In this document: positions 8,436-32,217 of the stretch, in pieces
How positions within the stretch are numbered: the first letter of the stretch is position 1
Layout of the letters: each line of letters starts with the position of its first letter
Source of the DNA: an uncultured Candidatus Saccharibacteria bacterium
GTDB taxonomy: Bacteria > Patescibacteriota > Saccharimonadia > Saccharimonadales > CAIOMD01
Length of the DNA: 33,146 bases
NCBI GenBank assembly: GCA_964426305.1
Contig: CAYRPO010000002.1
Coordinates: 1-33,146 of the forward strand
Reading direction: 5' to 3'
Notes under the pieces: generated by a model
Databases searched by the model: none
Seen by the model: the letters and a program-made list of their open reading frames with translations, nothing else
What the model was told of the DNA's origin: nothing
Program-made: the position numbers and the translations under genes

Positions 8436-9059
8436 ATGGATGAAATCAGAAAACAGTTTCAGCTGACTGCTGAGCAAGATCGTCAGTTTGTAGCGCTTGA
8501 GCACCTGTATGCAGGCTGGAATGCCAAGATCAATGTCATTTCCCGAAAAGACATGGAGTTGTTTTATGGGCATCATGTACTACACAGTTTGGCGATTGCA
8601 AAAGCCGTGCAATTTGCGCCTGGGTCGCGGGTATTGGACCTTGGGACGGGCGGAGGTTTTCCGGGTATACCGCTTGCAATTTTGTTTCCTCGGACAACAT
8701 TTTTGTTGGTCGATTCGGTTGGCAAAAAGTTAAAAGTTGTCGATGATGTTGCGCGTCAGCTCGGGCTAAAAAATGTTACTACCCTCCATGAGCGTGTCGA
8801 AAACGTGCCTGGCACATTTGACTTTGTAGTGTCGCGTGCTGTGACTCGGCTTGATACTGCGTGGGGTTGGATTTCTGCGAAAATCGCCAAACAAGCAAAG
8901 CATGATCTGCCAAATGGTTTACTGTACCTCAAGGGTGGGCAGATTGCCGATGAGCTCCCGCCGGGCGTACAGGTCGATCAATGGGATCTCAGTGAATGGT
9001 TTACTGGAGCGTACTTTGTCGAAAAAGGCTTGGTGCTAATTTCGCAAAAACACCGCTAA
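8436..9059 (+). CDS. rsmG: 16S rRNA (guanine527-N7)-methyltransferase
   Basis: WNAKINVIS...HHVLHSL...VLDLGTGGGFPGIPLAI...LVDSVGKK is the GidB/RsmG pattern. TGaTATGGT lies 6 nt upstream of the ATG. Confidence 0.9.
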   Translation: MDEIRKQFQLTAEQDRQFVALEHLYAGWNAKINVISRKDMELFYGHHVLHSLAIAKAVQFAPGSRVLDLGTGGGFPGIPLAILFPRTTFLLVDSVGKKLKVVDDVARQLGLKNVTTLHERVENVPGTFDFVVSRAVTRLDTAWGWISAKIAKQAKHDLPNGLLYLKGGQIADELPPGVQVDQWDLSEWFTGAYFVEKGLVLISQKHR

Positions 9060-10013
9060 CGCTTCGCTCGACTCAAGGCTATGAGGTGACTCTGCAAAAG
9101 CAGTCATGTCTTCAGCGCTATGACTGTCGCCTGACGCAATAGTTGATAGGCCGTATGTCATAGCAAGGTTTTGCAGTGTCTGTACATCCGCCTGGATGTT
9201 GTTTTGCGATATGGTATTGACGACCGATGTTTCAAGGCCGTCAAAATAGTGCTCTTTTATGAGCTGTTCCAGCTGATCTAGCGGCAGCGCAACTTTGTTG
9301 AAGAACCAATGTGCCAAAATGGCCTTTCCGCCGGCTTCTCGGATGAGCTCGACAGATTCTTTGAGGCCCACCATGGAGTTGTGTGTGCTACCACGAGCTG
9401 GTCGAAAGCTGTAATTTTTCATATATAGTACGTAGGGTTCTTGTTTTGGCCCGCCATCCTGGTAGTCTTGCCAGAGTTTTTGTACGTTTTTGCGAGTTCC
9501 TTTTTGAGCCTCTTTTTCTAGGGCGTGCAACAGGCGGTCGTGTATGGCTCTATTTGCGCTATGCGTGTCTAGTTCTAATGCCTGTACGGTATGAGGGCTG
9601 GCGATAGACCCTTTTCCAGCTTTTTCTAGAACTTTCTCTACAGTTACATCAAAGCCCAATGACTGTAAGTGGGCGACAGTATTGTGCATGGTCTGGCTAC
9701 GCTCAGCCTGTAGTTGCTTGCAGTACGCCGTTAGCTTTGGGTGGGTGCGGTTAACGCCTATGCCGAGCAGATGTATGGTACCACCCTTGGCTAGTGGCCG
9801 CGGGCTGTAGTATGTGGTGAGCTCGATACCGCTATGCCATGCAACTGGTCCATTGTAGTTTTTAAGCTGTGGCATCACTTCGTCTGGAATCAGTAAATCG
9901 TGATCCGAAAAAACAACATCCGTCAAACCAAGCACCTCTGCCTCGTGCATAATTTCCATGTGAGTCTGGTTGCCGTCAGAATACAGCGTGTGGGTGTGGG
10001 CAGATGCTTTCAT
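9036..10013 (-). CDS. PHP-domain metal-dependent phosphoesterase
   Basis: N-terminal HTHTLYSDG and VFSDHD, with a C-terminal GDSHS. These are PHP-family metal ligands. Confidence 0.8.
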   Translation of the reverse strand: MKASAHTHTLYSDGNQTHMEIMHEAEVLGLTDVVFSDHDLLIPDEVMPQLKNYNGPVAWHSGIELTTYYSPRPLAKGGTIHLLGIGVNRTHPKLTAYCKQLQAERSQTMHNTVAHLQSLGFDVTVEKVLEKAGKGSIASPHTVQALELDTHSANRAIHDRLLHALEKEAQKGTRKNVQKLWQDYQDGGPKQEPYVLYMKNYSFRPARGSTHNSMVGLKESVELIREAGGKAILAHWFFNKVALPLDQLEQLIKEHYFDGLETSVVNTISQNNIQADVQTLQNLAMTYGLSTIASGDSHSAEDMTAFAESPHSLESSEALAVFLRN

Positions 10014-18657: not shown

Positions 18658-18726
18658 CCCGGCTGTATACTTATACAAAAGCACATGACTTACAGGCTTT
18701 GCGTACCTGCGCCCCAAGAGCTGGAC

Positions 18727-19245
18727 TTATCTCTTTGCACTGTTTTGCCATTTGGTCAGCGCAGTATGTATGGCCATTTTGAACGAAATTTCTCTATCGA
18801 CTAATTCTTTGATGACTGAAAACGTGTATGGCTCTTTTGGTCCTGCGCCAAGATATTTTCTGATTTCGGTACCGAACTCAGCCCCATCTCTAACTTGATC
18901 AGAAACTGTTCTAGGAACCGATAGTCCTGACACGGTCGAACTATAATATGATTTGCCGTCGTAGATGCATGCCACACAAACAAGCACTGCGTTTGAATCG
19001 GTCCATGCTAGACCTGCTTCTACGCCTAATGATATATCGCCTTCTCTTGTTTGTGATGAATTCCAAGCGCTGTAGGCACGATTCTTTGCTCCTGACTCTG
19101 TTTCTGCGAGGCTAGTCGGTTGGTCGCTCACTCCACTGTTTACGTCTATTGGAACAATAACACAACTGTCGAGCAAAATATTTGCTTCATTGTCTACGTA
19201 GGTAGTTTTCTGCTTACTGACTGTACCAAGATAGATAGTCATCAT
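18727..19245 (-). CDS. DUF84/YjjX-type non-canonical purine NTP phosphatase (ITPase/XTPase)
   Basis: The pattern V..SGVSDQP....ET..GA.NRA, then GVEAGL, matches the YjjX family as I remember it (VESGVPEQP...ETRAGARNR...IEAG). It is the last gene of the operon. Confidence 0.65.
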   Translation of the reverse strand: MMTIYLGTVSKQKTTYVDNEANILLDSCVIVPIDVNSGVSDQPTSLAETESGAKNRAYSAWNSSQTREGDISLGVEAGLAWTDSNAVLVCVACIYDGKSYYSSTVSGLSVPRTVSDQVRDGAEFGTEIRKYLGAGPKEPYTFSVIKELVDREISFKMAIHTALTKWQNSAKR

Positions 19246-19249
19246 TTAC

Positions 19250-20359
19250 TTATAATACATGGTTCATTTTACTTTTTTTTGTTTCGAGATATCTTTTGTT
19301 GATTTCGTTAGGTTTGACCATGTGGGGGATTACGTCGTCAATTAATACGCCCAATTTTCGAAGCTTAATTGACTTGTCAGGGTTGTTGCTAAGAAGCCGT
19401 ATACTGCATACGCCTAAATCATCCAAAACGTCTCTTACGATGTCGTACGTGCGCATCTCTGAAGGTAAACCAAGGGCAAGATTGGCGTCTACGGTGTCTA
19501 GACCTTGACTTTGCAGTTTGTAGGCTTTGATCTTATTTATTATGTTTATGCCTCTCCCCTCTTGAAATAAATAAAACAGAATTCCGCAATCTTGCCTGGA
19601 TAGTATTTCAAGGGCCAGCTCGAGTTGCTCACCGCATTCACAGTGATTGGAGAACAATATGTCTCCAGTGATACATGAAGAATGGACACGAGTTAGCACC
19701 CCTTTGGATTGACCGACATCGCCTTTAATTAGAGCTAAGTGGTAAGAGTAGTCGACTTTGGACTGATACGCTCGCAACTCAAACAACCCATATTTTGTGT
19801 TTAACTTGGTTGATTCAACAAAATCATACATGGAATACGGTTTTGCGTTGATTCGCATACCACTCAAACAATCTGTAGCCACATTTCTTACGTTTTGTTC
19901 GCCGTCAACCTCAAAAAGCGAGCTTGCTCTTGTAGAGAGTATGGTGTCAACTTTTGTGCTATTTCTGTGTGATAAATAGTATTCATCAGTGATTTTCTGC
20001 TTGTCTTCAGCTCCCTGTCCACCGTGCAGAAGATAATTTAATGAGACATTAACTCGAATGACGGTAAGTTTAGCAATAAGTTTATCGTCAACCCACCTCA
20101 CAATTTCAGAGGCTTCGTGTGGATGAATACCAAATCCTCTGATTATTAATGTCTCATTTTCGTGAGAGCTAAGTGCTTCGCGCAGCATGGATACAAGGGA
20201 TTTCTTTTCGCCTGTACTCATGTTGTGAGTGTCGATATTTTGCTTCTTTGCAAGTTCCTCCCAAGATATAACTGGTGCGTTAAGAATTCTGCTTAATTCG
20301 TATGATAGCTCGGTCTTCCCGCTTGAAGGCGCACCTAGAAGTATGACTACGTCTTTCAC
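19250..20359 (-). CDS. Fusion protein: N-terminal P-loop NMP-kinase-like domain + C-terminal GTP cyclohydrolase II
   Basis: GTG start overlapping the upstream stop (GTGA). N-terminus has LLGAPSSGKTE. C-terminus has RVHSSCITGDILFSNHCECGEQL (three Zn cysteines of RibA), EGRGINIINKIKAY, DTVDAN and RLLSNNPDK. Confidence 0.85.
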   Translation of the reverse strand: MKDVVILLGAPSSGKTELSYELSRILNAPVISWEELAKKQNIDTHNMSTGEKKSLVSMLREALSSHENETLIIRGFGIHPHEASEIVRWVDDKLIAKLTVIRVNVSLNYLLHGGQGAEDKQKITDEYYLSHRNSTKVDTILSTRASSLFEVDGEQNVRNVATDCLSGMRINAKPYSMYDFVESTKLNTKYGLFELRAYQSKVDYSYHLALIKGDVGQSKGVLTRVHSSCITGDILFSNHCECGEQLELALEILSRQDCGILFYLFQEGRGINIINKIKAYKLQSQGLDTVDANLALGLPSEMRTYDIVRDVLDDLGVCSIRLLSNNPDKSIKLRKLGVLIDDVIPHMVKPNEINKRYLETKKSKMNHVL

Positions 20360-21360
20360 TGCAATATACCCTTTTCCGTTAGATCAATTAATGTGTCAAA
20401 ATCATTGTCCGTCCATGGATGTATGAAGCTAAATGCGAACAGAGTATGTTTTAATTTGGCTGCAAATGGAAACTGAGTGCTGTCAATCGCAGAATATGTT
20501 TTATTCCAGAAAGGCGTACATTTTTTGAAATTATTTGCGGCAAATCTGTCGTACATTGCTTGAGAGTCTGAGACTATAACAGGTAGCATAGTTGGAAACG
20601 CAACCTCGTGTGTGATCATAGACGATGCTATAGCAAGTTGATTATCATCTACGGCGCGACTTATTATCGCGAACACCTTAGAAAACTCACGCCTAACTTG
20701 TTTTGATCGTTCTTCTAACTCAGTTTTATTTGGAGCCTGCAAGTCATCATCAGTTAGTGTATAGCCGCCGTATTGGGCATATCGCGGCCCAAAAGGGTTT
20801 CGTGAATCAATACCCAGATGTATGCCACTACCTTGCGAAACAGCTCCAGTATGGTATCGACGGTAGTTTTCGCTCTCGTACTCTGCTACTTCGGATGGCA
20901 ACTGAGCAATCGGCGGCATATCTACAGGATCTTTACTCACTAGAAATGCACCATTTGGTGTTAGAAGTTGTTTACGAAGACTATATATGGCAAAGGCACC
21001 CATTGGTCGTGCCCTTTCTGTACTTAGGTCAATTAAGTTATAGGCATTATCAGTTATAACTTCTGCAAACTCGTGAGCATTGGGCAAACCAAAATAGTTT
21101 ACTATGAGCGCTTCGGAGATTGAGTCGTCTTGCCTTTGACTATGGAACAGACCATCTTTAGGATTGAAAATAACATCGTAAGGATGCATTTCAATACCGG
21201 CTTGACGTAATGCTTCTAGCTCATCACCGCACGCATAGGCGGGCACAGATAAATCCATAATACCTCTTTTTACGAGAGACTCAGCGGCCTTGTGTAATGC
21301 ATTTCTTCCAAACAGGAATGGTATTGTCTGCCTGTCATCGGCGATTCTTCGTTCTGTCAT
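20356..21360 (-). CDS. DegT/DnrJ/EryC1-like PLP-dependent enzyme (sugar aminotransferase/dehydratase fold)
   Basis: FGRNALHKAAESL...LSVPAYACGDELEALRQAGIEMHPYDV resembles the DegT N-terminal layout. YSLRKQLLTPNGAFLV resembles the SFhxxKxlttgeGG Schiff-base lysine region. ATGA overlap with the upstream gene. Confidence 0.55.
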   Translation of the reverse strand: MTERRIADDRQTIPFLFGRNALHKAAESLVKRGIMDLSVPAYACGDELEALRQAGIEMHPYDVIFNPKDGLFHSQRQDDSISEALIVNYFGLPNAHEFAEVITDNAYNLIDLSTERARPMGAFAIYSLRKQLLTPNGAFLVSKDPVDMPPIAQLPSEVAEYESENYRRYHTGAVSQGSGIHLGIDSRNPFGPRYAQYGGYTLTDDDLQAPNKTELEERSKQVRREFSKVFAIISRAVDDNQLAIASSMITHEVAFPTMLPVIVSDSQAMYDRFAANNFKKCTPFWNKTYSAIDSTQFPFAAKLKHTLFAFSFIHPWTDNDFDTLIDLTEKGILQ

Positions 21361-22217
21361 ATGATCTCCACGTCATACGTGCGAGTGAGTTGAGATGGTC
21401 TAAACTGCAATTTATGATTTCGAGTTCCTTCTTCTGTGCCCAAATCACCATCATTAATTCTTGTTTTGCCCTTAGCAAAAGCAGTCTCGAAGAGGTAAAA
21501 ATATAGATACGATGAAGCTTTTGTTGTGCCAGATCGTCTAGCGTCATTTATTCCTTTGGTGATGCATGCGATAAGAACATCGTCTCTTGAAAAGTCGTAT
21601 ATCGATATACCTGCCGGCCGGTCTCTATAGTACAGAACAACACCCTGAGTCTCTGTTGTGCTTTTGCCATGTGCTATTGCCCTCATCAATGATCCTTCCG
21701 CCTGAGACCTGTCTCGAGCGTATATGTCTGCTCTTTGACTGCGCCAAAGTTCATTTACTAGTAAGGCATCTGGCAATGTTGATGTGCTTAAAGCACGCAA
21801 GACAAAATCTGGATCCTCTAGTACCTTCTTTTTATTTCGGAGTTTGGCGTACTGGGATCCCTTTAGCTCACGCATCGTTTGAACGTCATAGAAAACTTCT
21901 TGGTCAGCTCTAATTACAGGACGCGTGCTAGACCCTCCTAGTTGGCGTATTTGTGCTACCTGTGAAGGGCTGCAGAATTTGATCCAAACAGACCTAGACG
22001 ATTCCCTTGTAGTGTCTTCATTTGGAATTGAGTGTGCCGCAATGATTTCCGAGATTGGAACAATAACCTGATGTTCGCTCTGAAAACTTAGCAACGGTCG
22101 ACCATCTTGCGACTCAATCTCAACTGGGCTATGGTCTCCTGCCAAATAATGTCCGTAGCTTTCGAATTGCTCATGTACGACTTGATCTGGATCGAATCCT
22201 ACTCTGTTAATGTTCAC
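21357..22217 (-). CDS. Hypothetical protein, possible DUF2156 (MprF C-domain/VlmA-like) aminoacyl-tRNA-dependent transferase fold
   Basis: GTG start preceded by AAGGTGAGAG, with an 11-nt overlap with the upstream gene. The C-terminal part, ...YYRDRPAGISIYDF...INDGDLGTEEGTRNHKLQFRP, recalls the ...lG.s...GL..FK.KF.P ending of LPG_synthase_C proteins. Memory-based and unverified. Confidence 0.45.
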   Translation of the reverse strand: MNINRVGFDPDQVVHEQFESYGHYLAGDHSPVEIESQDGRPLLSFQSEHQVIVPISEIIAAHSIPNEDTTRESSRSVWIKFCSPSQVAQIRQLGGSSTRPVIRADQEVFYDVQTMRELKGSQYAKLRNKKKVLEDPDFVLRALSTSTLPDALLVNELWRSQRADIYARDRSQAEGSLMRAIAHGKSTTETQGVVLYYRDRPAGISIYDFSRDDVLIACITKGINDARRSGTTKASSYLYFYLFETAFAKGKTRINDGDLGTEEGTRNHKLQFRPSQLTRTYDVEII

Positions 22218-23034
22218 AAACTCTCACCTTTCGAGGAACGAACAACGGAACTTCCAGATTAGGCATAAGTCGTGTGCGTTCAATAGCTGATTCTGACCAA
22301 AAGTATATTGCATCTGGATACCCACGGTTAATCTCAGCAGCCAAATACGGATATGCTATGGCTAGTTGTTCGGAGCGAGCATCTGACATTTCGTCGCTCC
22401 AGCCCAATAGCTCCGCATAACAGATACGGTTACGCATTTTGACAATATTTAAATCGGACGGGGAATGTTTAATGAGTTCAATCGACGTGCCTTCTTCGCC
22501 CAAAGTATCGGCAAGTGTATGTATCGAGCTTAACTTGATCGCATTAAAATCAGGTGGAATATTTTTCAGTAGATCAAGAAATGTATCATGTAAATCATCG
22601 GCGTAGCTGGTTCCCTTAAGCTCATGCAGATTTTCGAGAATTAAGTCGCTAAATAGTATTGTGATAGTTGACTTAATGTCATATTTTTTTGCAAGATTTG
22701 CAATATAGACTAGTGTATTAATATTCTCCCTTGTTTTGTTGCCAATCTTGTTGTTATAGCCATATATACCTGCACCTGTTTTGTATGAGGGGCAAAATAT
22801 GCTCACTAGCGCGAGTTTTTGTAACCCTAACCCAATTTTAATTATTTTCTTACGCAGTGCAGATTCTTGAGCTACATTTAAGTAGCCGATATTTGCAAAA
22901 TCAATGAACTCCTCGTAAAATTTCTCAGCCTGAACGAGGCGAGCATTCTCTTGTTCTGTAAACAAAATCTTTTGCCTACTAACCACCTGACCTATACCAG
23001 CGTTTGATGCAACTTGTTTGATTAAAATTGTCAT
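22207..23034 (-). CDS. Hypothetical protein (275 aa), function unknown
   Basis: ATG 23034 lies 10 nt after the tRNA CCA end. No family recognised with confidence. See the findings for a speculative cyclodipeptide-synthase-like motif spacing. Confidence 0.7.
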   Translation of the reverse strand: MTILIKQVASNAGIGQVVSRQKILFTEQENARLVQAEKFYEEFIDFANIGYLNVAQESALRKKIIKIGLGLQKLALVSIFCPSYKTGAGIYGYNNKIGNKTRENINTLVYIANLAKKYDIKSTITILFSDLILENLHELKGTSYADDLHDTFLDLLKNIPPDFNAIKLSSIHTLADTLGEEGTSIELIKHSPSDLNIVKMRNRICYAELLGWSDEMSDARSEQLAIAYPYLAAEINRGYPDAIYFWSESAIERTRLMPNLEVPLFVPRKVRVCEH

Positions 23035-23044
23035 AATATTCTCT

Positions 23045-23120
23045 TGGAGCCCGAGGACAGACTTAAACTGCCGACCTGATACAAACCATGTATCCGCTCT
23101 CTCTTCTGAGCTACTCGGGC
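23045..23120 (-). tRNA. Non-canonical tRNA-Thr(GGU)-like gene with encoded CCA
   Basis: The reverse complement folds as GCCCGAG-TA-GCTC-AGAAGAGA-GAGC-G-GATAC-ATGGTTT-GTATC-AGGTC-GGCAG-TTTAAGT-CTGTC-CTCGGGC-T-CCA. That is 76 nt with all four stems intact and anticodon GGT. The D loop lacks GG, the T loop is TTTAAGT, and position 37 is T. Confidence 0.8.
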
Positions 23121-23133
23121 ATATCGTGTGGAA

Positions 23134-23811
23134 CTATATAACTTTTACTTCCCTCGCCGCAACGCTTACGTCCAAAATATCACCAAGTTCCGACAGCACA
23201 ACTTCTGGTGGCTTCGAAGTGGTGTCGATATGGCTTATGGCAAAACCAGACATTTGTAGATGACTGAATAGCCTCGGCACCGTCTCGGTATAGTCAGTAA
23301 ACCTTCTTTGAAATGATACTAGCTCATCATCGGTTCGGGCTGTGACGGTATTGCTACCACATCTGACACACGTGATCATGTCCGGTGCTTGCATATCGCA
23401 TTTTTGACAAATGCGACGCGAAGATACCCTTTGCGAAGCCTGTTCGAGGTCAACGTCAAATACTGCAACTGTGCCCGGAATTATATCGGGACGACTATTC
23501 AGCATATCATCGAGTATCTTTAGCTCTCGAGGCCACTTTGGAAAACCGTCGAATACTATATTTTCGGCTACGCATGAGCTGAGCGATCGTTCAATAATAC
23601 GAGACATGATACAACGTGGGTATTCTCTGACGGTCTCAAGATACGCACGCATGCGCTTTGACAGAGCTGTATCTTGTCTCAGTTCGTTTCTGAAGAGTGC
23701 ACCGACAGAAACATAGTCAATCTCTTGGCCGTCTATCCCTTCTATGGCCGTTGTTTTGCCAGAACCTGGAGGACCATAGAGAATATGGACTTTTTGGAGT
23801 GACTCACTCAT
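23134..23811 (-). CDS. Adenylate-kinase-family protein with zinc-type LID (divergent paralog)
   Basis: GPPGSGKTT (canonical Adk has GKGT), VSVGALFR, VFDGFPKWPREL, LID CQKC...CVRCGS, and RTDDELVSFQRRFTDY. Confidence 0.8.
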   Translation of the reverse strand: MSESLQKVHILYGPPGSGKTTAIEGIDGQEIDYVSVGALFRNELRQDTALSKRMRAYLETVREYPRCIMSRIIERSLSSCVAENIVFDGFPKWPRELKILDDMLNSRPDIIPGTVAVFDVDLEQASQRVSSRRICQKCDMQAPDMITCVRCGSNTVTARTDDELVSFQRRFTDYTETVPRLFSHLQMSGFAISHIDTTSKPPEVVLSELGDILDVSVAAREVKVI

Positions 23812-23814
23812 AAT

Positions 23815-24315
23815 TTAGCTCTCTTCAAATAGCGATAAGTCGCGGTCAACAGAAACTATCGTAAATGTTGATTTTTGATTAACAGAAACTACGTCGCCAG
23901 GTTTTTTGCCAAGAAGCGCAGCTCCAAGCGGTGTGTCATAACTGATTGTTCCATTGTCAGGTTTTCCTTCGCCGTGGCCAACGATTGTCCAAGTTTTTTG
24001 TATCCCTTTATTTGAGAGTAATTCGACGATTGATCCGATCCAAACTTCGTCGACAGGTCGTTCGCATACTGAATCTGTGTCCAGTATCACCGCTGCGTCT
24101 AAAATGCCTTGTATGCGATTCCTGCTAGTAGGAATTTCAAATTGTACTTCTGCGCGGTGTTGTTTGAACTCGGTATTTTCAGGCAAGTCTGGATCTCGGC
24201 GGGCTGCTTCGCCAATGAGACGAAACAATTCTTTTTGTCGCGCATTAAGCATTTCAAGTTGCGTGTCTAGCAGCTCGCGGCCTCTTGGTGTTAGGTATAA
24301 AGATGAATCGGACAT
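23815..24315 (-). CDS. greA: Transcript cleavage factor GreA family
   Basis: LTPRGRELL..., coiled-coil tip DLPENTEF (acidic D/E pair retained), and a C-terminal domain ISYDTPLGAALLGKKPGDVV. The track start at 24333 is TTG, so the ATG at 24315 is preferred. Confidence 0.85.
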   Translation of the reverse strand: MSDSSLYLTPRGRELLDTQLEMLNARQKELFRLIGEAARRDPDLPENTEFKQHRAEVQFEIPTSRNRIQGILDAAVILDTDSVCERPVDEVWIGSIVELLSNKGIQKTWTIVGHGEGKPDNGTISYDTPLGAALLGKKPGDVVSVNQKSTFTIVSVDRDLSLFEES

Positions 24316-24486
24316 CTGAGTATTATTCCACAATAATTAAATTATGTAAATATTATTATAGAATAGTCATATTTGAAGTATTGTATATAATCTGCATCAC
24401 ACATTTTGACTGTAAATAAAGAAAAATAGTTCCAGTGCTGCTGCATGTTTTGTGACCCAGACTTATCATTTTTACCTACACTAAAA

Positions 24487-27880: not shown

Positions 27881-29353
27881 CTATGCGGCAACACCAACCT
27901 GAACTGAGCCAAGCTCTCGCAGCCGGGCTTGGATGTGTGGCAAGGTACTTACTGCAACACGGTCGGTGGCGACTTCATTTGCTGCATTGGTCTGTACCAA
28001 CGGTATTTCACTTGGCAACAGCACGTGCCTGACCCACATCATTTTCTGGCCAGGCACCAAGACCCCCCACTCTCCCACGCCGAGCTGGGTGGTGTACCAA
28101 GCATCGGCGTCGGAAGCGCCGCGCCGCGTGATTGCGTGCAGCGTGCTATCGTCTTGCTCCTGCCTGCCATATAAGCGCATACCAATGCTTCGACTCAGGC
28201 TCTGGCCAAGACCTCGCAACTCGCTGTCTTCGGCACCGACCATGGTGAAGTCGGCTTCGTTGTGCGAGACCATAATTTCGGTCCCGGGGTAGCTTCGCTG
28301 CTTGCGCAGCTTGGTATCACGAGCACGGGCATGCGCGAGGTCCTTGATTGCACTGTGCACCTCGTCGCTGGCTGTAACATTGGGGCTAAGCCTCATGTCC
28401 CATCGTTCCAACGCTGCAGCATCCCAGCGTGCGAGCTGTGCTTCAAGGATTGCGCCTGGCTTGCCTGTCACCCCCGTCCAGTCTAGATTGACCATGGGGA
28501 GCGACAAGAGGTCGTACAGGCTTCTGTTGCCGCCAAAAAGCTTACCGTAGTCCGCACGCAGTAGCTGTCCTATGATGGCGCTAAAACTGCCAGCTCCCTC
28601 CCGGAACTTTTGCTCGTCGATATTGTGCGGACGAGCAATTGCCAAGCGTAGCTGGTCAGCCAGCAGTTCATTCTCGGCACACTCTTGCGTGTATCGATGT
28701 AGTACCTCGCTGTTGCTTGCCTCGTAGTACCGATCCAAATCGGTCATGTCCAGGCCGCGTGCCTTAACTTCTAGAACCTCTGGCGAGGCAATGTCGGCAA
28801 GGTCTTTCAGCATGGTGTACACGGCAACCTGTGCTGCAAGCGTCTGATACGTGTCTAGACGTTTGCCGGTAATTGTCGTGGCGACGCCGATTGCCGTCTC
28901 TAGAATGTCCCACTCTGTCATGCCCATGAGCGGGTCAAACAAGTTGATCGAACCTTGCTCGATCAACTTGACCGTGTCGGCAAGCAGAAAGTCGGCAACA
29001 TCGGCATTCTCGCCGCGTCCCTTATTGGGCTTGCGGTCGTGCATGCGCGCTGTGGCCTCTCGGGGCAGGCCCGTCACAGGATCTGGCCCGCTTTGCAGTG
29101 CTAAAAGTCGCAAGACGAGCGACTTTACCAGTGCGGACTTACCATGTCCAATTTGGCCAAGAATCAGAAGCGTGCAGACATTGATGATGTCAAGCTTCTT
29201 GAGCAGCTGTGGGTCGATGAACACGACTTGACCTGTGCGCATCTCGAAGCCAAAGAACGCGCCAGAATCTAGCCAGCGTGGTGTTGTGCACCATGGCTGC
29301 ATCTTTGCCATTACACTGGCATCGCCCTTGAAAAACTTTCTGCTACTTCCCAT
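27881..29353 (-). CDS. VirB4-type (T4SS) P-loop ATPase domain protein, no TM segment
   Basis: Walker A ILGQIGHGKSALV, Walker B-like VTASDEVHSAI, then RSYPGTEIMVSHNEADF (the VirB4 RK..hhh.tQ..sD-like region). SD GAAGGGGA. Confidence 0.7.
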   Translation of the reverse strand: MGSSRKFFKGDASVMAKMQPWCTTPRWLDSGAFFGFEMRTGQVVFIDPQLLKKLDIINVCTLLILGQIGHGKSALVKSLVLRLLALQSGPDPVTGLPREATARMHDRKPNKGRGENADVADFLLADTVKLIEQGSINLFDPLMGMTEWDILETAIGVATTITGKRLDTYQTLAAQVAVYTMLKDLADIASPEVLEVKARGLDMTDLDRYYEASNSEVLHRYTQECAENELLADQLRLAIARPHNIDEQKFREGAGSFSAIIGQLLRADYGKLFGGNRSLYDLLSLPMVNLDWTGVTGKPGAILEAQLARWDAAALERWDMRLSPNVTASDEVHSAIKDLAHARARDTKLRKQRSYPGTEIMVSHNEADFTMVGAEDSELRGLGQSLSRSIGMRLYGRQEQDDSTLHAITRRGASDADAWYTTQLGVGEWGVLVPGQKMMWVRHVLLPSEIPLVQTNAANEVATDRVAVSTLPHIQARLRELGSVQVGVAA

Positions 29354-29482
29354 GACACATCCCCTTCGGGTGGATTGTGGGCGAACGTTTCATAACTTTG
29401 GTTGTTAAGGGATTCGGAGGTGATGTTTCGCGCACCTCAACAACGCGTCAAACACATGTAACATGTTGTTGAGATGTGAGAT

Positions 29483-29522
29483 CCCCAGAGGAGGTGCGGC
29501 TTTCGCTGCGCCTCCTCTGGGG
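29483..29522. other. Strong hairpin in the spacer between the two VirB4-like halves
   Basis: CCCCAGAGGAGGTGCG / TGCGCCTCCTCTGGGG: 15 Watson-Crick pairs plus one G.U. Two further, mutually exclusive hairpins lie at 29417-29438 and 29436-29473. Confidence 0.6.
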
Positions 29523-29545
29523 TAGTACCTCACAAACAATCACAA

Positions 29546-31123
29546 CTACAGCAGACCTATGCAGGTTGTTGCTGTCAGCATGGCGCGGAATTGCCTTGAT
29601 CGTCCAGTGACGACCGTAGCTAGTGCGCCAACGCTTTTTGCAACACCCAGCAGTCTTGCCAGATCTGCTTCCAGCTCTTCAGGATCGTCACTTGCCGCAC
29701 TCAGATACACGTCGAAGTACTCGGTGTGCCCCTTTGCTGCAAGTTCCTCTTGGCGTGCGTCGAGCGATTCGCGTCGATTTCGGGTCTTGGGTCCGAATTC
29801 GAATCCAAGCGAGTCAAGGACACTGTCAAAGATACTTGCGAACCAGCTGGTTCGCAAGTACTCGGCATTGCCGGTTGTTGACTCGCCGATCACACTGACG
29901 CTCGGCCACCTGACGCCCGAGTCCGAGAACAGGGCTGGCATGAGATTTGGCACGATGTCTCGAGGTAACTGTGTTAGTCGCACGGTTACGTGCCCTGTTT
30001 GGTCGGTGACACATGAGCTGTTGTCAGTGTAGATCCCGAACTGTGGGTGGTACAGCGGTGCCATACCTTCCGCCTCAGAGGCGATGTGCTGGTCGCGTTC
30101 CTCGCGGTACGCTTCGAGTCCGGCAACATCCCACGCTGCGCGCAGGTAATCCTCGCACTCTAGTTGATCCAAGATGTGAGGATTATGGACAGTTGCCCGC
30201 TTTAGCGCATCGCAGACATCGAGTGCCATGTCGACAATCGTTGTCCGAAGTGCTTCTCGGGGCGTGACCTCTGCCTTGCCTTTTGCCGCAGAACGCAGCA
30301 AGGGTGGACGCTGAATGGTTATGACAGCGACCATATCCACGTCGCAGCCTTCGATATTCGCTAGTGCGATTGACTCGGCTACGATTGCGCCAAGGCGTGC
30401 TCGACGAACATCTTCTTTCGAGACAAGACCCTGTTCGTACAGCTCTTCGAGCGTCTGCCCTGTCTTTGCCATGGGGACTAGAGCGGCAGGCACAAGAATG
30501 TCGGGATACGCATTCTGGTCATACGCAACTCGGATCTCCGAGGTGCTGTATGGTCGTCTACGATACCCAAAACTTACCTCGGCGGTCAGGCCGGAGTAGT
30601 TCGCAATCCGTCGTATGACACTCGCGATGACCTCTTGAGCATCGTGCATGCCCATGAGCGACATGCCAGCAATGTCGCTACCACTACTGGCAATGACGAT
30701 CGAGTCCGTGCCAGTGACGGTGTTATAGATGAGCCCAATGTCGTGCAATTTGTCGACACGAAGGGGCATTGGCACATGTCTGCGCAGTATGTCTTGACGC
30801 GGTTTCTTGCTCGGCTGCCCTGCCTCGTCAGTAGCCTTGGTCCAGTCCTCCCAAAGAGTGTCCTTCAGGTAGAGTCGAATCCACAGGCTGTAGACATACT
30901 CGCCAATGGCGTAATACCGTCTGCTCCAAAGCAGCGGCCACCACAGCCATAGTCCAATGGCAATGCCCGGAAACAAAAATGCGAATCCAAAGCGAGTCCA
31001 ACCGATCAGGTTGATCGATATGAGGACTAGTGCCATGCGGCCATCGGCGCGGTGATTGAGTTTGAACAAGTCGTAGGAGAGCCGTGTTGGCGCTTCTACG
31101 TAGGGGACAGTCTGTCCTTCCAT
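29546..31123 (-). CDS. Membrane-anchored protein, candidate VirB3-like TM + VirB4 N-terminal-domain protein
   Basis: 525 aa, SD GGAGGGTAGG. N-terminal hydrophobic hairpin MALVLISINLIGWTRFGFAFLFPGIAIGLWLWWPLLW, no P-loop. It sits immediately upstream of the ATPase. The functional call comes from architecture and synteny only. Confidence 0.45.
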   Translation of the reverse strand: MEGQTVPYVEAPTRLSYDLFKLNHRADGRMALVLISINLIGWTRFGFAFLFPGIAIGLWLWWPLLWSRRYYAIGEYVYSLWIRLYLKDTLWEDWTKATDEAGQPSKKPRQDILRRHVPMPLRVDKLHDIGLIYNTVTGTDSIVIASSGSDIAGMSLMGMHDAQEVIASVIRRIANYSGLTAEVSFGYRRRPYSTSEIRVAYDQNAYPDILVPAALVPMAKTGQTLEELYEQGLVSKEDVRRARLGAIVAESIALANIEGCDVDMVAVITIQRPPLLRSAAKGKAEVTPREALRTTIVDMALDVCDALKRATVHNPHILDQLECEDYLRAAWDVAGLEAYREERDQHIASEAEGMAPLYHPQFGIYTDNSSCVTDQTGHVTVRLTQLPRDIVPNLMPALFSDSGVRWPSVSVIGESTTGNAEYLRTSWFASIFDSVLDSLGFEFGPKTRNRRESLDARQEELAAKGHTEYFDVYLSAASDDPEELEADLARLLGVAKSVGALATVVTGRSRQFRAMLTATTCIGLL

Positions 31124-31131
31124 AGGTGCAC

Positions 31132-32217
31132 CTACCCTCCTGGTTTCTTGAATTTGCCGCCAAACCTTGAGGCAGCAGTTGCGCCCACTACCGCAACCTT
31201 TGCGACGGGGTGTGTGCTCGACGCAACCTTCATGGCTGCCATGGTAGCTCCGGCGGCTGCGACCTTCGTCCCAGCCTTAACAGATGCCTTGGCAACTTCC
31301 TTGGTCGCTTCCCTGCCGACCTCGTGTGCTGCCGCTTTACGGAAGCCACGGGCATGATTGGCATTTGTGTGCTGCTGTATGTCGACCTTATTCTTAATTG
31401 TCGACACGACTTTACCGGTCACCAGTGCGGCTACGGTGCCTTCAACCCACTTTACGCCGGAGTAGGCAACCGCAAACAGCACGAACTGCGAGATGATCGC
31501 AGCGACGTACGACATGATCGTGAATACATAGGACACGAAAAACGTACGTCCAAGCGGCATGGTGTAGATCGCGACTTGGCCCATCTCTAGGAAGAAGACA
31601 GCAAAGGGTCGACCGAACATGGTTGCGACAATGCCAAGGCTCAGAATGGCGTTTGAGAACGCCTTGCTGCGCTTGCCAAAAGCACTGATGCTGTAGGCAA
31701 GCGGACCCCAGAACCGAAACACGACGATCAGGATCTGGTAAGAGGAGATCAGCGCTGTCAGCGTTACTCCCCAGAACAAGGCAACAACCAGCCCTGTAAT
31801 CGAACCAGTTAAGCTTTGAACACCAGCGATGCCTGGCACTACTGGTGCGTCGGCCGGAGGATCATAGAAATCCATTGCTGCCGCGAAGTCATTACCAAAA
31901 GCGACCATCTCGTCTACGAGTTTGTCGAAGACTGGGATGAAAACCACGCACACGACAAAGACAAGGAATGCCTTGCCGACGCGGTCAAACTTGCGGAATG
32001 TCAGAGCCGACAAGACAACGACAAGCAGCAAGACAGTCTGGGCGTACCAAATTGCAGTGGTGTGCGCCATGCTGTACAGGTCACTCAGGTCGCCCGATGC
32101 GGTCGGTGGGTTGATGATGATCTGTTCGAACAGATCAGTCATCTTGGTGTACAGGTCGAGGAGATCGTCCTTGATTCCACCGAGTGGGTCAAGCGGGTTG
32201 AAGAACGAGGGAACCAT
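31132..32217 (-). CDS. Polytopic membrane protein, VirB6/TrbL-like, with Ala/Lys-rich C-terminal tail
   Basis: At least six hydrophobic helices. SD AGGGAGG. It sits between the pilin-like and VirB4-like genes. Tail is ...KEVAKASVKAGTKVAAAGATMAAMKVASS.... Confidence 0.5.
   Translation of the reverse strand: MVPSFFNPLDPLGGIKDDLLDLYTKMTDLFEQIIINPPTASGDLSDLYSMAHTTAIWYAQTVLLLVVVLSALTFRKFDRVGKAFLVFVVCVVFIPVFDKLVDEMVAFGNDFAAAMDFYDPPADAPVVPGIAGVQSLTGSITGLVVALFWGVTLTALISSYQILIVVFRFWGPLAYSISAFGKRSKAFSNAILSLGIVATMFGRPFAVFFLEMGQVAIYTMPLGRTFFVSYVFTIMSYVAAIISQFVLFAVAYSGVKWVEGTVAALVTGKVVSTIKNKVDIQQHTNANHARGFRKAAAHEVGREATKEVAKASVKAGTKVAAAGATMAAMKVASSTHPVAKVAVVGATAASRFGGKFKKPGG

Follow-up and report, generated by a model that had tools for sequence, protein, structure and literature searches.

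A non-canonical tRNA-Thr-like gene in a GTP cyclohydrolase cassette of Saccharibacteria and relatives, a candidate threonine carrier outside translation

A non-canonical tRNA-Thr(GGU)-like gene, located within a gene cassette of an uncultured Candidatus Saccharibacteria bacterium (assembly GCA_964426305.1), probably encodes a dedicated non-translational carrier, i.e. a tRNA that would be charged by threonyl-tRNA synthetase (ThrRS), be unfit for the ribosome and serve as threonine donor to a GTP-derived acceptor. This reading is held with moderate confidence. The whole stretch of DNA analysed, in the following referred to as the window, comprises 33,146 nucleotides (positions 1 to 33,146 of contig CAYRPO010000002.1). 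The RNA encoded at this locus is real and selected, and represents neither a chance fold nor a decaying gene. The cassette is rare, occurs in ultra-small CPR bacteria (Patescibacteria) and, judged from gene content, may link aminoacyl-tRNA to GTP cyclohydrolase chemistry in an uncharacterised pathway. Literature searches on the cassette, on Thr-tRNA-dependent natural products, on DUF2156 proteins acting with nucleotides and on GTP cyclohydrolase plus kinases in defence retrieved no description.

Sequence, fold and conservation of the cassette tRNA

Read from position 23120 to 23045, the 5' half of the tRNA is GCCCGAG UA GCUC AGAAGAGA GAGC G GAUAC AUGGUUU GUAUC and the 3' half is AGGUC GGCAG UUUAAGU CUGUC CUCGGGC U CCA. 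The acceptor (7 bp), D (4 bp) and anticodon (5 bp) stems are all perfect, the T stem contains a single G50.U64 pair, and the anticodon GGU is preceded by U33 in a normal 7-nt loop. The 76-nt cloverleaf with its three perfect stems, GGU, U37, U56 and encoded CCA had been described in the original prediction and was confirmed in the sequence. The strand, absent from that prediction, is minus. The minimum free energy fold corresponds to the cloverleaf (-29.6 kcal/mol, z = -3.3) and was equalled by 0 of 200 shuffles. Aligned with E. coli thrT, the D loop reads A14 G15 A16 A17 G18 A19 G20 A21 in standard numbering, and the deviant positions of the window copy are A19 (no G19), U56 (no C56) and U37. 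The loss of G18-G19 claimed earlier holds for the GG motif, which is absent, but G18 is probably kept and only G19 replaced by A. An A19-U56 pair could in principle form in the window copy. The stretch AGGUC GGCAG, attributed in the original prediction to E. coli tRNA-Thr(GGU), is indeed that of thrT(GGU), whereas thrV(GGU) has AGGUC CCCAG (thrV, thrT and thrU sequences taken by coordinates). A BLASTN search of the 76-mer against E. coli genomes yielded no match and was uninformative.

CPR genomes (Saccharibacteria, Paceibacteria) and metagenomes yielded 13 distinct homologues of the tRNA. Overall, 98.2 % of the cells in their alignment are paired, compensatory changes occur in 9 of 21 pairs, and all five pairs of the anticodon stem covary. 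The covariation score was reached by 0 of 500 shuffles, and slid controls pair at just 31–50 %. Covariation of positions 19 and 56, proposed earlier as a check, was not detected, the combinations present being A/A, A/U, A/C and G/A. The homologues share 66–99 % nucleotide identity (mean pairwise ~80 %) versus 24–60 % identity of the neighbouring proteins. A decaying tRNA pseudogene, as considered in the original prediction, or a chance cloverleaf would account for the missing universal G19, C56 and purine 37 as well as for the lack of an Rfam report for the window copy; both are, however, effectively refuted by these comparative data, since identity exceeds that of the flanking proteins, all stems stay paired and the deviant D loop AGNAGAGA is itself conserved in 11 of 13 copies.

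ARAGORN predicted a single tRNA in the window, the minus-strand tRNA-Thr(ggt) described here, and, across the 13 family members, called 8 as tRNA-Thr and a ninth as unassigned tRNA, with 4 being missed. The Rfam model RF00005 did not report the window tRNA at the gathering score (29 bits) or at E<=10; searches with 601-nt and 86-nt slices and with the identical copies in loci L004 and L005 were likewise without report. The same applies to L141 and L085, resulting in three sequence types without report (window/L004/L005, L141, L085), which could reflect filter-stage loss. Bit scores of 50.5 (L014), 49.2 (L218) and 43.0 (L159) were obtained for other members and of 67–68 for two ordinary tRNAs. 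Cassette tRNAs thus fall into a detection blind spot, as they escape ARAGORN (4 of 13) and, for some sequence types, Rfam.

Conservation within the family is unevenly distributed. All 13 homologues keep the pairs G1-C72 and C2-G71 as well as G35 and U36 without exception; together these elements form the bacterial ThrRS identity set, as established for E. coli ThrRS. Nucleotide 34 varies freely among G, U, A and C (anticodons GGU, UGU, CGU and AGU), and nucleotide 33 of the seven-nt anticodon loops is U in 6 of 12 and A or G in the other 6, one further member possessing an 8-nt loop. At position 37, eight of the 13 members have a pyrimidine and five a purine (A37 in all five). At the elbow, 12 of the 13 copies have A19, one has GG and three have C56, and G19 and C56 never occur together. 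The CCA end is encoded in 11 of 13 copies. Ordinary tRNA-Thr from other loci (n = 33) served as controls and carry U33 in 32 cases (one C33) and A37, GG and C56 in 33 of 33 each; among wider control tRNAs, 273 of 278 have GG, and 268 of 269 sequences scorable at position 56 have C56. These controls are by-catch of the collection scans, in which ordinary tRNAs with a TTCAAGT T loop made up ~190 of ~200 matches because the scan pattern had left position 56 free (any base). As to the descent from a normal tRNA-Thr suggested in the original prediction, the tRNA body, with the anticodon arm masked, scored alike against Thr, Met and Val tRNAs, in a comparison set biased by the search pattern. Overall, the conservation pattern supports selection on the ThrRS identity set rather than on decoding features (U33, nucleotide 34, purine 37, G19-C56). 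Some copies could still decode, as U33 is retained in six members and A37 in five.

A normal decoding tRNA-Thr in CPR bacteria, syntenic by chance and with oddities reflecting an unusual translation apparatus, would agree with the ARAGORN calls, with the three members scoring above the Rfam gathering score, and with U33 and the normal 7-nt loop of the window copy. CPR genomes are also small, their tRNAs are often single-copy and their ribosomes atypical. Such a decoding role is nevertheless very unlikely: orthologues switch between four anticodons, half lose U33 and one gains an 8-nt loop, the 33 ordinary tRNA-Thr are canonical at each deviant position save one C33, and related cassettes without the neighbouring transferase gene lack this tRNA. 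Loop deviations shared by most tRNAs of the organism, which the original prediction had named as a counter-argument, are partly discounted by a Saccharibacteria relative, in which a fully canonical tRNA-Lys shares the contig with the cassette and the deviations are thus not organism-wide.

Binding to EF-Tu was predicted by means of the additive T-stem rules (PMC3239215, Table 2). A weak affinity of -8.6 kcal/mol results for the window copy and a range of -8.1 to -10.0 kcal/mol for the family, as compared to a class mean of -10.0 kcal/mol listed for tRNA-Thr(CGU) (PMC3239215). Predicted affinity is not uniformly weak, 5 of 13 members lying within ~0.6 kcal/mol of the normal value.

Gene order and encoded proteins of the cassette

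The seven-gene cassette (Table 1) is ordered as follows: GreA-like gene, adenylate-kinase-like (ADK-like) gene, tRNA, gene of protein X, gene of a putative DUF2156/LPG_synthase_C-type aminoacyl-tRNA transferase (ATT), gene of a putative DegT-like PLP enzyme (protein Y), kinase-GTP cyclohydrolase II fusion and ITPase-like NTPase gene. Contigs bearing the tRNA are named Ca. Saccharibacteria, Ca. Paceibacteria or Ca. Paceibacterota. The tRNA slot between the ADK-like gene and X is fixed in every cassette with an ATT gene, and every locus with an ATT gene has the tRNA. Four X-containing cassettes without ATT gene (L222–L225) are devoid of the tRNA; GTP cyclohydrolase and nucleotide kinases are always present in these tRNA-less, ATT-less cassettes, which points to a nucleotide substrate of X.

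Table 1. Features of the cassette in the window
Feature	Position	Strand	Basis of assignment
Best sigma-70-like match, possible cassette promoter	24322..24350	-	Upstream of GreA-like gene; consensus match only
GreA/GreB-family transcript-cleavage-factor paralogue, first cassette gene	23815..24333	-	Pfam GreA_GreB 1.2e-17, NCBIfam
Adenylate-kinase-family NMP kinase, Cys4 zinc lid	23134..23811	-	Pfam ADK 4.7e-15
Non-canonical tRNA-Thr(GGU)-like gene, encoded CCA	23045..23120	-	ARAGORN, fold, family alignment, covariation
Protein X, 275 aa, HUP/class-I-aaRS-like alpha/beta fold	22207..23034	-	AlphaFold2 + Foldseek
Putative free-standing DUF2156/LPG_synthase_C-like aminoacyl-tRNA transferase (ATT), 286 aa	21357..22217	-	Orthologue PF09924 matches
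Protein Y, 334 aa, putative divergent DegT/DnrJ/EryC1-like fold-type-I PLP/PMP enzyme	20356..21360	-	Profile, Pfam, Foldseek
P-loop kinase + GTP cyclohydrolase II (RibA-type) fusion	19250..20359	-	Pfam GTP_cyclohydro2 1.9e-55
NTPase_I-T (DUF84, inosine/xanthosine triphosphatase-like), last cassette gene	18727..19245	-	Pfam PF01931 9e-22

In the window, the tRNA starts 13 nt after the stop codon of the ADK-like gene and its 3' end lies 10 nt before the ATG of X, in line with the operon-embedded position predicted originally. Across the family, the tRNA is wedged 2–13 nt past the ADK-like stop and 3–12 nt ahead of the X start, and overlaps the start codon in L218. The sigma-70-like match upstream of the cassette agrees in 10 of 12 positions and has a TG extension. 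The gap that separates the tRNA from the ADK-like gene contains no promoter-like site, and neither a separate promoter-like nor a terminator-like site flanks the tRNA. This arrangement would also suit a cis-acting tRNA-like element, which carries no amino acid and controls processing or expression of the operon RNA, be it through a cut by RNase P or RNase Z that splits the greA-adk message from the X-to-NTPase message or through control over translation of X. Little or no room is left for a ribosome-binding site, so that the mRNA of X would be almost leaderless after excision. A pure processing signal, however, needs neither invariant G35-U36 and G1-C72/C2-G71 nor the CCA end found in most copies, and would not be expected to track the presence of the ATT gene, rendering this alternative quite improbable. 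A processing role and a carrier role are not mutually exclusive.

Two further roles were considered and dropped: a T-box-like or decoy function, for which no supporting feature was found, and the tRNA as target of a GTP-derived (queuosine-like) base modification, in view of the freely varying nucleotide 34. PADLOC detected no defence-model match for the cassette proteins and only two weak HTH-type matches, with a Crp-like regulator in the flank. Among viral contigs, none harboured the tRNA pattern and none a relative of protein X.

The GreA-like protein retains the acidic tip motif DLPEN (alignment of the tip with an E. coli GreA sequence), and its gene is conserved in the cassette. The ADK-like protein, syntenic in all relatives, is divergent, because it scores only 96 bits against TIGR01351 (cut-off, 168). 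In the fusion protein, the translation of which contains HSSCITGDILFSNHCECG, the match to NCBIfam NF001591 (220 bits) exceeds the cut-off of 148, and the zinc motif Cys-x10-Cys-x-Cys of GTP cyclohydrolase II appears intact. The NTPase gene, too, is conserved across the cassettes; in L011, it is joined to that of GTP cyclohydrolase II.

ATT is the presumed user of the charged cassette tRNA. The window protein has no PF09924 match even at E<=10, and its assignment is drawn from orthologues sharing 28–43 % identity: PF09924 was detected in 5 of 7 orthologues (best E 2.2e-13), and the sole non-self homologue among 5.8 billion sequences also carries this domain. The orthologue profile has its top PDB match, at a weak E of 0.05 over 210 residues, in 2HQY, which we take to be a DUF2156 structure, the title of the deposit being just 'conserved hypothetical protein'. 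A basic stretch, KLRNKK, is conserved in the alignment. Sequence-only PDB searches with X and the 286-aa ATT returned nothing useful.

Protein Y contains the candidate cofactor motifs D104-x-A106 and S127-L-R-K130, with D104, A106 and K130 being invariant. Its orthologue profile matched best to PDB entries that are all DegT-family (weak E, 0.04–0.3), PF01041 was detected in 1 of 7 orthologues (3e-4), and the L219 orthologue has a precomputed PF01041 match. The Foldseek matches, all DegT-family, are supportive only, as the model is poor (pLDDT 56, TM ~0.3).

Protein X has no Pfam, NCBIfam or PADLOC match, and 10 further relatives are likewise without Pfam match. Among 1.84 billion proteins, the family has only 95 cluster representatives, and all named copies carry the annotation hypothetical. 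Natural fusions of X with LPG_synthase_C, ADK and NDK domains exist, the fusion with the ATT domain occurring in five cluster representatives. The AlphaFold2 model (pLDDT 89.9) has its best matches in two isonitrile synthases, PIsnA and PvcA (Foldseek: 9dh4, 9dhm, 3e59; E 3e-6 to 1.5e-4, TM ~0.5), followed by lower matches to TrpRS, TyrRS and cyclodipeptide synthases (aminoacyl-tRNA synthetases: TM 0.39–0.47). The likeness to IsnA/PvcA is one of fold: neither X nor its relatives match the Pfam family of these enzymes, the Pfam annotation of the cassette genes includes no IsnB/PvcB-type Fe/2-oxoglutarate partner, and X is instead consistently partnered by GTP cyclohydrolase and nucleotide kinases. 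In PMC7949033, isonitrile synthases are described as joining amino-acid nitrogen to ribulose-5-phosphate carbon, which suggests by analogy that X may join an amine to a sugar-phosphate.

The lower structural matches of X also bear on a different version of the dedicated carrier, in which the tRNA would be charged or remodelled by cassette enzymes rather than simply carry threonine loaded by ThrRS. X would then be a minimal synthetase loading a non-canonical residue, or threonine would be modified on the tRNA by the P-loop kinase and then by Y, in the manner of Ser-tRNASec, which is converted to Sep-tRNASec and on to Sec-tRNASec, and the DUF2156 enzyme would transfer the product. Besides the matches to TrpRS, TyrRS and cyclodipeptide synthases, the X-DUF2156 fusions recalling ErdS, a fungal AspRS-DUF2156 protein (PMC8913301), the presence of two ADK-like kinase domains alongside a PLP-like enzyme of fold type I, and the appearance of SepSecS among the Foldseek matches of Y (rank 41) speak for this version. 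It is unlikely in view of the better match of X to isonitrile synthases than to aminoacyl-tRNA synthetases, of conserved residues of X revealing neither HIGH nor KMSKS and no visible anticodon-binding domain, of the nucleotide substrate indicated by tRNA-less, ATT-less X cassettes, of the NMP-kinase-like appearance of both kinases and of the low confidence of the Y model.

Proposed function and comparison with known systems

The favoured reading, a tRNA supplying ThrRS-loaded threonine to cassette enzymes, envisages the following sequence of events. The tRNA would form part of the polycistronic cassette transcript, from which the usual tRNA-processing enzymes would release it. Since G1-C72, C2-G71, G35 and U36 are kept, ordinary cellular ThrRS is proposed to charge it with threonine; G35 and U36 might, though, be read by a cassette protein and not by ThrRS. 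The charged tRNA would be a poor ribosomal substrate, because G19-C56 is lost, U33, purine 37 and nucleotide 34 are unconserved, and the T stem of the window copy is predicted to be EF-Tu-weak. Judged from gene association, the DUF2156/LPG_synthase_C-type transferase would then take the threonyl group from the tRNA and place it on an acceptor made by GTP cyclohydrolase II, the two nucleotide kinases, X and the DegT-like PLP enzyme. As to the product, a pyrimidine or purine nucleotide derived from GTP and bearing a threonyl group is a guess, on which the Gre-factor paralogue and the NTPase would cope with toxicity or with effects on RNA polymerase. That the tRNA could serve the neighbouring enzymes as their own aminoacyl carrier, as suggested in the original prediction, gains support from the putative transferase-family neighbour, the fixed slot, the co-occurrence of both genes and the selection pattern.

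To our knowledge, very few tRNAs are dedicated to chemistry over translation, the classic case being the staphylococcal cell-wall tRNA-Gly. This Staphylococcus tRNA-Gly, which deviates in its D and T loops, is aminoacylated by the normal synthetase, has a low affinity for EF-Tu and is used in cell-wall synthesis (PMC8007984, PMC3239215). The cassette tRNA resembles this donor of the FemXAB pentaglycine bridge in being isoacceptor-like with D- and T-loop deviations, and is predicted to share normal charging, weak EF-Tu binding and the feeding of a transferase. It differs in that it is tRNA-Thr-like, is encoded in one operon with its presumed user enzymes, occurs in CPR bacteria and is partnered by a DUF2156-type rather than a Fem-type transferase; moreover, its EF-Tu weakness is predicted and not uniform across the family. 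The relaxed anticodon loop, in which U33 and nucleotides 34 and 37 vary, sets it further apart, and we know of no report of such relaxation for staphylococcal non-proteinogenic tRNA-Gly.

VlmA is presumably a DUF2156 member. It uses Ser-tRNA (PMC12945691), and characterised DUF2156 members are aminoacyl-tRNA transferases, namely aminoacyl-glycerolipid synthases/MprF and fungal ErdS and ErgS (PMC8913301). The cassette ATT is related to them by the PF09924 matches of its orthologues and by KLRNKK, which sits where the family has a positively charged tRNA-binding helix; like ErgS, it is free-standing and soluble. In contrast, the known members use ordinary cellular aminoacyl-tRNAs with lipids, sterols or hydroxylamine as acceptors, and the window ATT is so divergent that every Pfam threshold is missed. 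Among the DUF2156 systems found, none possesses its own tRNA gene or GTP cyclohydrolase, kinase and DegT partners.

A pathway-dedicated supply of aminoacyl-tRNA, coupled physically or genetically to a transferase, is also provided by ErdS (AspRS paralogue-DUF2156), which itself charges the tRNA and hands it on to its transferase domain (PMC8913301), and by VlmL/VlmA. The X-DUF2156 fusions resemble the ErdS architecture; the dedicated part of the cassette is, however, the tRNA and not a synthetase, X not being demonstrably one. A specialised, non-standard tRNA serves as scaffold in the tRNASec/PSTK/SepSecS and SepRS/SepCysS pathways and with the Asp/Glu-tRNA amidotransferases, and kinase and PLP enzymes are present in the cassette, too; unlike what is proposed for the cassette tRNA, those tRNAs reach the ribosome and keep their decoding features. 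In E. coli, the thrU-tyrU-glyT-thrT-tufB cluster is co-transcribed, with a tRNA-Thr gene likewise directly upstream of a same-strand protein gene. There, canonical decoding tRNAs head the operon at normal leader spacing, whereas the cassette tRNA lies within its operon, right against the following start codon.

A more far-reaching reading, which is doubtful at present, proposes an undescribed tRNA-scaffolded pathway: a ribosome-insulated orthogonal tRNA with rebuilt elbow and relaxed anticodon loop would deliver threonine, or a threonine derivative formed on the tRNA by kinase and PLP enzyme, to a ring-opened GTP product of GTP cyclohydrolase II. The resulting new aminoacyl- or 8-substituted nucleotide would be phosphorylated to the triphosphate and act on RNA polymerase. 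If true, this would explain the presence of the Gre-factor paralogue and the house-cleaning NTPase, and CPR episymbionts might use the product against hosts, competitors or phages.

The carrier reading favoured here makes the tRNA family a natural experiment, in which the needs of the synthetase (acceptor pairs, G35, U36) would have been kept and those of the ribosome (U33, nucleotide 34, purine 37, G19-C56) released. It would thereby provide a testable system for the question of how a pool of aminoacyl-tRNA is kept apart from translation in the cell, and the cassette tRNA may offer a natural template for orthogonal tRNAs.

Cassette layout and the tRNA gene

The cassette, compiled below, is a compact row of minus-strand genes. 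The G+C content of the cassette (window 18700-24350) is 41–45 % vs 49–57 % in most of the flanks, which suggests horizontal acquisition. None of the cassette proteins matched a PADLOC defence model. Elsewhere in the window, ORFs of 577, 325, 490, 525 and 361 aa (within 1743-3476, 9036-10013 and 27881-32217) lack a Pfam match, in keeping with a lineage that, like the CPR bacteria, is poorly characterised.

Features of the cassette in the window, in the order of the gene row
Feature	Position	Strand	Remark
GreA/GreB-family protein	23815-24333	-	first in gene row
Adenylate-kinase (ADK)-family protein, Cys4 lid	23134-23811	-	
Cassette tRNA	23045-23120	-	between ADK-like gene and X
Protein X, 275 aa, no family match	22207-23034	-	
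286-aa protein	21357-22217	-	
Protein Y, 334 aa	20356-21360	-	
P-loop kinase + bona fide GTP cyclohydrolase II fusion	19250-20359	-	
NTPase_I-T/ITPase-like protein	18727-19245	-	end of gene row

The cassette tRNA (reverse complement of window 23045..23120) reads GCCCGAG-UA-GCUC-AGAAGAGA-GAGC-G-GAUAC-AUGGUUU-GUAUC-AGGUC-GGCAG-UUUAAGU-CUGUC-CUCGGGC-U-CCA. Reading of the sequence confirmed the originally predicted perfect acceptor, D and anticodon stems, a T stem with a single G.U pair (50:64), anticodon GGU, U37, U56 in the T loop and an encoded CCA. The D loop, described as devoid of G18-G19, indeed lacks the GG doublet, but alignment with E. coli thrT (A14 G15 A16 A17 G18 A19 G20 A21) indicates that G18 is probably kept and G19 alone is missing. 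The motif AGGUC GGCAG, originally likened to E. coli tRNA-Thr(GGU), matches thrT(GGU) exactly but differs from thrV. Descent from a tRNA-Thr is a possibility; with the anticodon arm masked, Thr, Met and Val tRNAs score alike, in a comparison set biased by the search pattern. ARAGORN reports tRNA-Thr(ggt) on the minus strand as the sole tRNA across the 33-kb window, and the cloverleaf is the minimum-free-energy fold (-29.6 kcal/mol, z = -3.3; 0 of 200 shuffles fold as well).

In the window, the ADK-like stop codon is followed by 13 nt, the tRNA, 10 nt and the start codon of X. On the minus strand, promoter-like sites are grouped ahead of the GreA-like gene, and the scan found none directly before the tRNA. 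The tRNA would be co-transcribed with the cassette and then excised, leaving an X mRNA that would be nearly leaderless. The X start codon lies 3–12 nt past the tRNA 3' end (window 23034-23045 and homologous sites in relatives L006 to L219), with an overlap in the related locus L218. This narrow gap favours an element that acts mainly in cis, in processing or in the control of translation; such an explanation is decidedly unlikely and leaves G35-U36, the encoded CCA (not encoded in L218 and a further relative, L212) and the transferase link unaccounted for.

Distribution and conservation of the tRNA family

Homologues are very scarce: among 5.8 billion sequences, five non-self homologues of X and one of the 286-aa protein were found. 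Their contigs carry this cassette with its gene order unchanged, in every case with a tRNA-like gene between the ADK-like gene and X; three of these tRNA-like genes were missed by ARAGORN and spotted by eye. Further members, in Candidatus Saccharibacteria and Candidatus Paceibacteria MAGs, came from scanning genome and metagenome collections for the tRNA pattern; the remaining ~190 matches were ordinary tRNAs. The X family comprises only 95 clusters (profile search, 1.84 billion representatives), and its distant members revealed two more tRNA-bearing cassettes, L218 and L219/L220, the L220 contig belonging to a Ca. Paceibacterota MAG with X fused to the next gene. Neither the tRNA pattern nor X was found in viral contigs, and all named database copies are annotated as 'hypothetical protein'. 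In one relative (L008), a DDE transposase is located ~2 kb downstream of the cassette. The resulting family set comprises 13 distinct tRNA sequences.

Detection of these RNAs by standard tools is uneven. The window tRNA gave no Rfam tRNA-model match at gathering score or at E<=10 (short slices, identical copies): RF00005 (cmscan) was silent on the window and family loci L004, L005, L141 and L085, including at E<=10 on an 86-nt slice. It did report members L014 (50.5 bits), L218 (49.2 bits) and L159 (43.0 bits). Reported and unreported members are very similar in sequence, and the filter stage is probably the cause of the misses. The ARAGORN misses are four members with A33.

In the 13-sequence alignment, 98.2 % of cloverleaf cells are paired and both-sided changes occur in 9 of 21 pairs, with covariation in all five pairs of the anticodon stem. 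None of 500 shuffles attained the pairing or the covariation score of the real alignment, and pairing fell to 31–50 % once the partner was shifted by 1–3 columns. Family tRNAs share 66–99 % pairwise nucleotide identity (mean 80 %), flanking proteins 24–60 %. Pairing, covariation and tRNA identity above that of the flanking proteins exclude a chance fold, and leave a pseudogene with negligible probability; the decaying tRNA considered in the original prediction is ruled out on the same grounds.

Invariant in all 13 members are G1-C72, C2-G71, C3-G70, G35 and U36, as well as U8, A14, G15, G18, A21, C48, G53, U54, U55, A57, A58 and C61, and the D stem is constant except for one G.U. Nucleotide 34 may be G, U, A or C, the anticodon always being NGU (Thr). 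Position 33 is U in six members and A/G in six, with an 8-nt loop in one, vs U in 32 of 33 ordinary tRNA-Thr controls, a figure biased by ARAGORN disfavouring loops without U33. Nucleotide 37 is a pyrimidine in 8 of 13 (controls: A, 33/33), nucleotide 19 is A in 12 of 13 (controls: GG, 33/33), and nucleotide 56 is A in eight, U in two and C in three (controls: C, 33/33); G19 and C56 never occur together (0/13). Across the whole control set of 278 ordinary tRNAs, purine 37 and GG are each present in 98 % and C56 in >99 % of scorable cases. Conservation of the D loop AGNAGAGA in 11 of 13 members makes its deviation appear selected and not a product of drift. The contig of one Saccharibacteria member also holds a fully canonical tRNA-Lys (GG D loop, U33, A37, UUCAAGU T loop), so that the deviations do not characterise the tRNAs of that organism in general.

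G1-C72, C2-G71, G35 and U36 are taken here to be the bacterial ThrRS identity set. U33, a modified purine 37, a constrained nucleotide 34 and the G19-C56 elbow are needed by the ribosome and its partners, and the elbow is not contacted by ThrRS. The simplest reading of the aligned sequences would be selection for Thr charging combined with release from decoding; an ordinary decoding tRNA is very improbable.

Cassette proteins and a possible wider X module

The window 286-aa protein falls below every Pfam threshold. However, five of its seven orthologues match PF09924 (LPG_synthase_C/DUF2156; best E 2.2e-13), the best PDB match of the orthologue profile is 2HQY (E 0.05, 210 residues), presumably a DUF2156 structure, and the basic stretch KLRNKK is conserved; it is thus a putative DUF2156-family transferase, assigned through its orthologues only. 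PF09924 is a family of aminoacyl-tRNA transferases including bacterial MprF-type synthases and fungal ErdS and ErgS (PMC8913301); VlmA uses Ser-tRNA as substrate (PMC12945691). The transferase is akin to DUF2156 enzymes that stand alone, ErgS for example, and natural X-DUF2156 fusions (five representatives) are reminiscent of ErdS. X is also fused to ADK (two) and NDK (one). Protein X matches no sequence family; its confident structure model (pLDDT 89.9) is nearest to the isonitrile synthases PIsnA and PvcA (E ~3e-6, TM ~0.5), followed by TrpRS, TyrRS and cyclodipeptide synthases. That cassette enzymes charge the tRNA or remodel the amino acid on it is rather unlikely. Y is, with moderate support, a divergent DegT/DnrJ/EryC1-like enzyme. 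The GreA-like protein, a fixed member of the cassette, keeps the catalytic acidic tip DLPEN (compared with E. coli GreA); its gene is a paralogue, because a second GreA_GreB gene lies just upstream of the cassette's own on the Saccharibacteria contig L009 (5197-5670, 6777-7292).

More distant X homologues occur without a DUF2156 gene in cassettes with other GTP cyclohydrolases (type I or FolE2), CYTH and nucleotide kinases, as in loci L222 (4797-8120) and L225 (435-2341) with GTP cyclohydrolase I or II, CYTH, ADK and NDK. The four such loci L222–L225 have no adjacent tRNA-like gene. X, GTP cyclohydrolase and nucleotide kinases look like a wider uncharacterised module; across these loci and the cassette, GTP cyclohydrolase and kinases are the companions of X, and the aminoacyl-tRNA transferase is that of the tRNA. 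In L222, the module is located beside NucS- and PD-(D/E)XK-type nucleases. In locus L221, a cassette of FolE2-type GTP cyclohydrolase, CYTH and an X-ADK fusion is preceded, at a distance of 6 nt, by an aberrant tRNA-Val(UAC)-like gene (669-743) with a 6-nt D loop and a shortened T loop. The contig ends before a transferase gene could show; the gene may represent another type of odd tRNA linked to such cassettes.

Putative role of the cassette tRNA

The family is a conserved, structured tRNA-like gene with a fixed place in the cassette, a distinct selection pattern and an association with the DUF2156 family. The cassette tRNA is probably a dedicated Thr carrier for the cassette enzymes; the aminoacyl carrier favoured by the original prediction thus gains support from comparative genomics. 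Housekeeping ThrRS would charge the tRNA, EF-Tu and the ribosome would use it poorly, and the DUF2156-like enzyme would move Thr onto an acceptor made from GTP by the other cassette enzymes. T-stem rules predict EF-Tu binding of -8.6 kcal/mol for the window copy and -8.1 to -10.0 kcal/mol across the family, the tRNA-Thr(CGU) class mean being -10.0 kcal/mol (PMC3239215); given this span, EF-Tu exclusion is not uniformly predicted.

The nearest functional analogue may be the staphylococcal non-proteinogenic tRNA-Gly, from which the cassette tRNA differs in amino acid, host group, operon-internal gene, relaxed anticodon loop and partner enzyme (DUF2156 vs Fem). Neither a GNAT-fold enzyme dependent on Thr-tRNA nor a tRNA encoded by its own pathway is listed in a 2026 review of natural-product enzymes that use aminoacyl-tRNA. 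Literature searches found the cassette described nowhere; its tRNA would be a non-proteinogenic carrier within an apparently undescribed pathway. In L219 (1-7168) and L220, of the Ca. Paceibacterota MAG, the cassette adjoins surface-polysaccharide genes (glycosyltransferase, PIG-L, WbqC, methyltransferase, flippase, Wzy_C), neighbours which hint at a modified nucleotide-sugar or surface decoration as possible product. One guess at the product is a threonylated form of what GTP cyclohydrolase II makes, phosphorylated at a later step; if true, this would explain why the cassette has kinases, an NTPase and a Gre paralogue.
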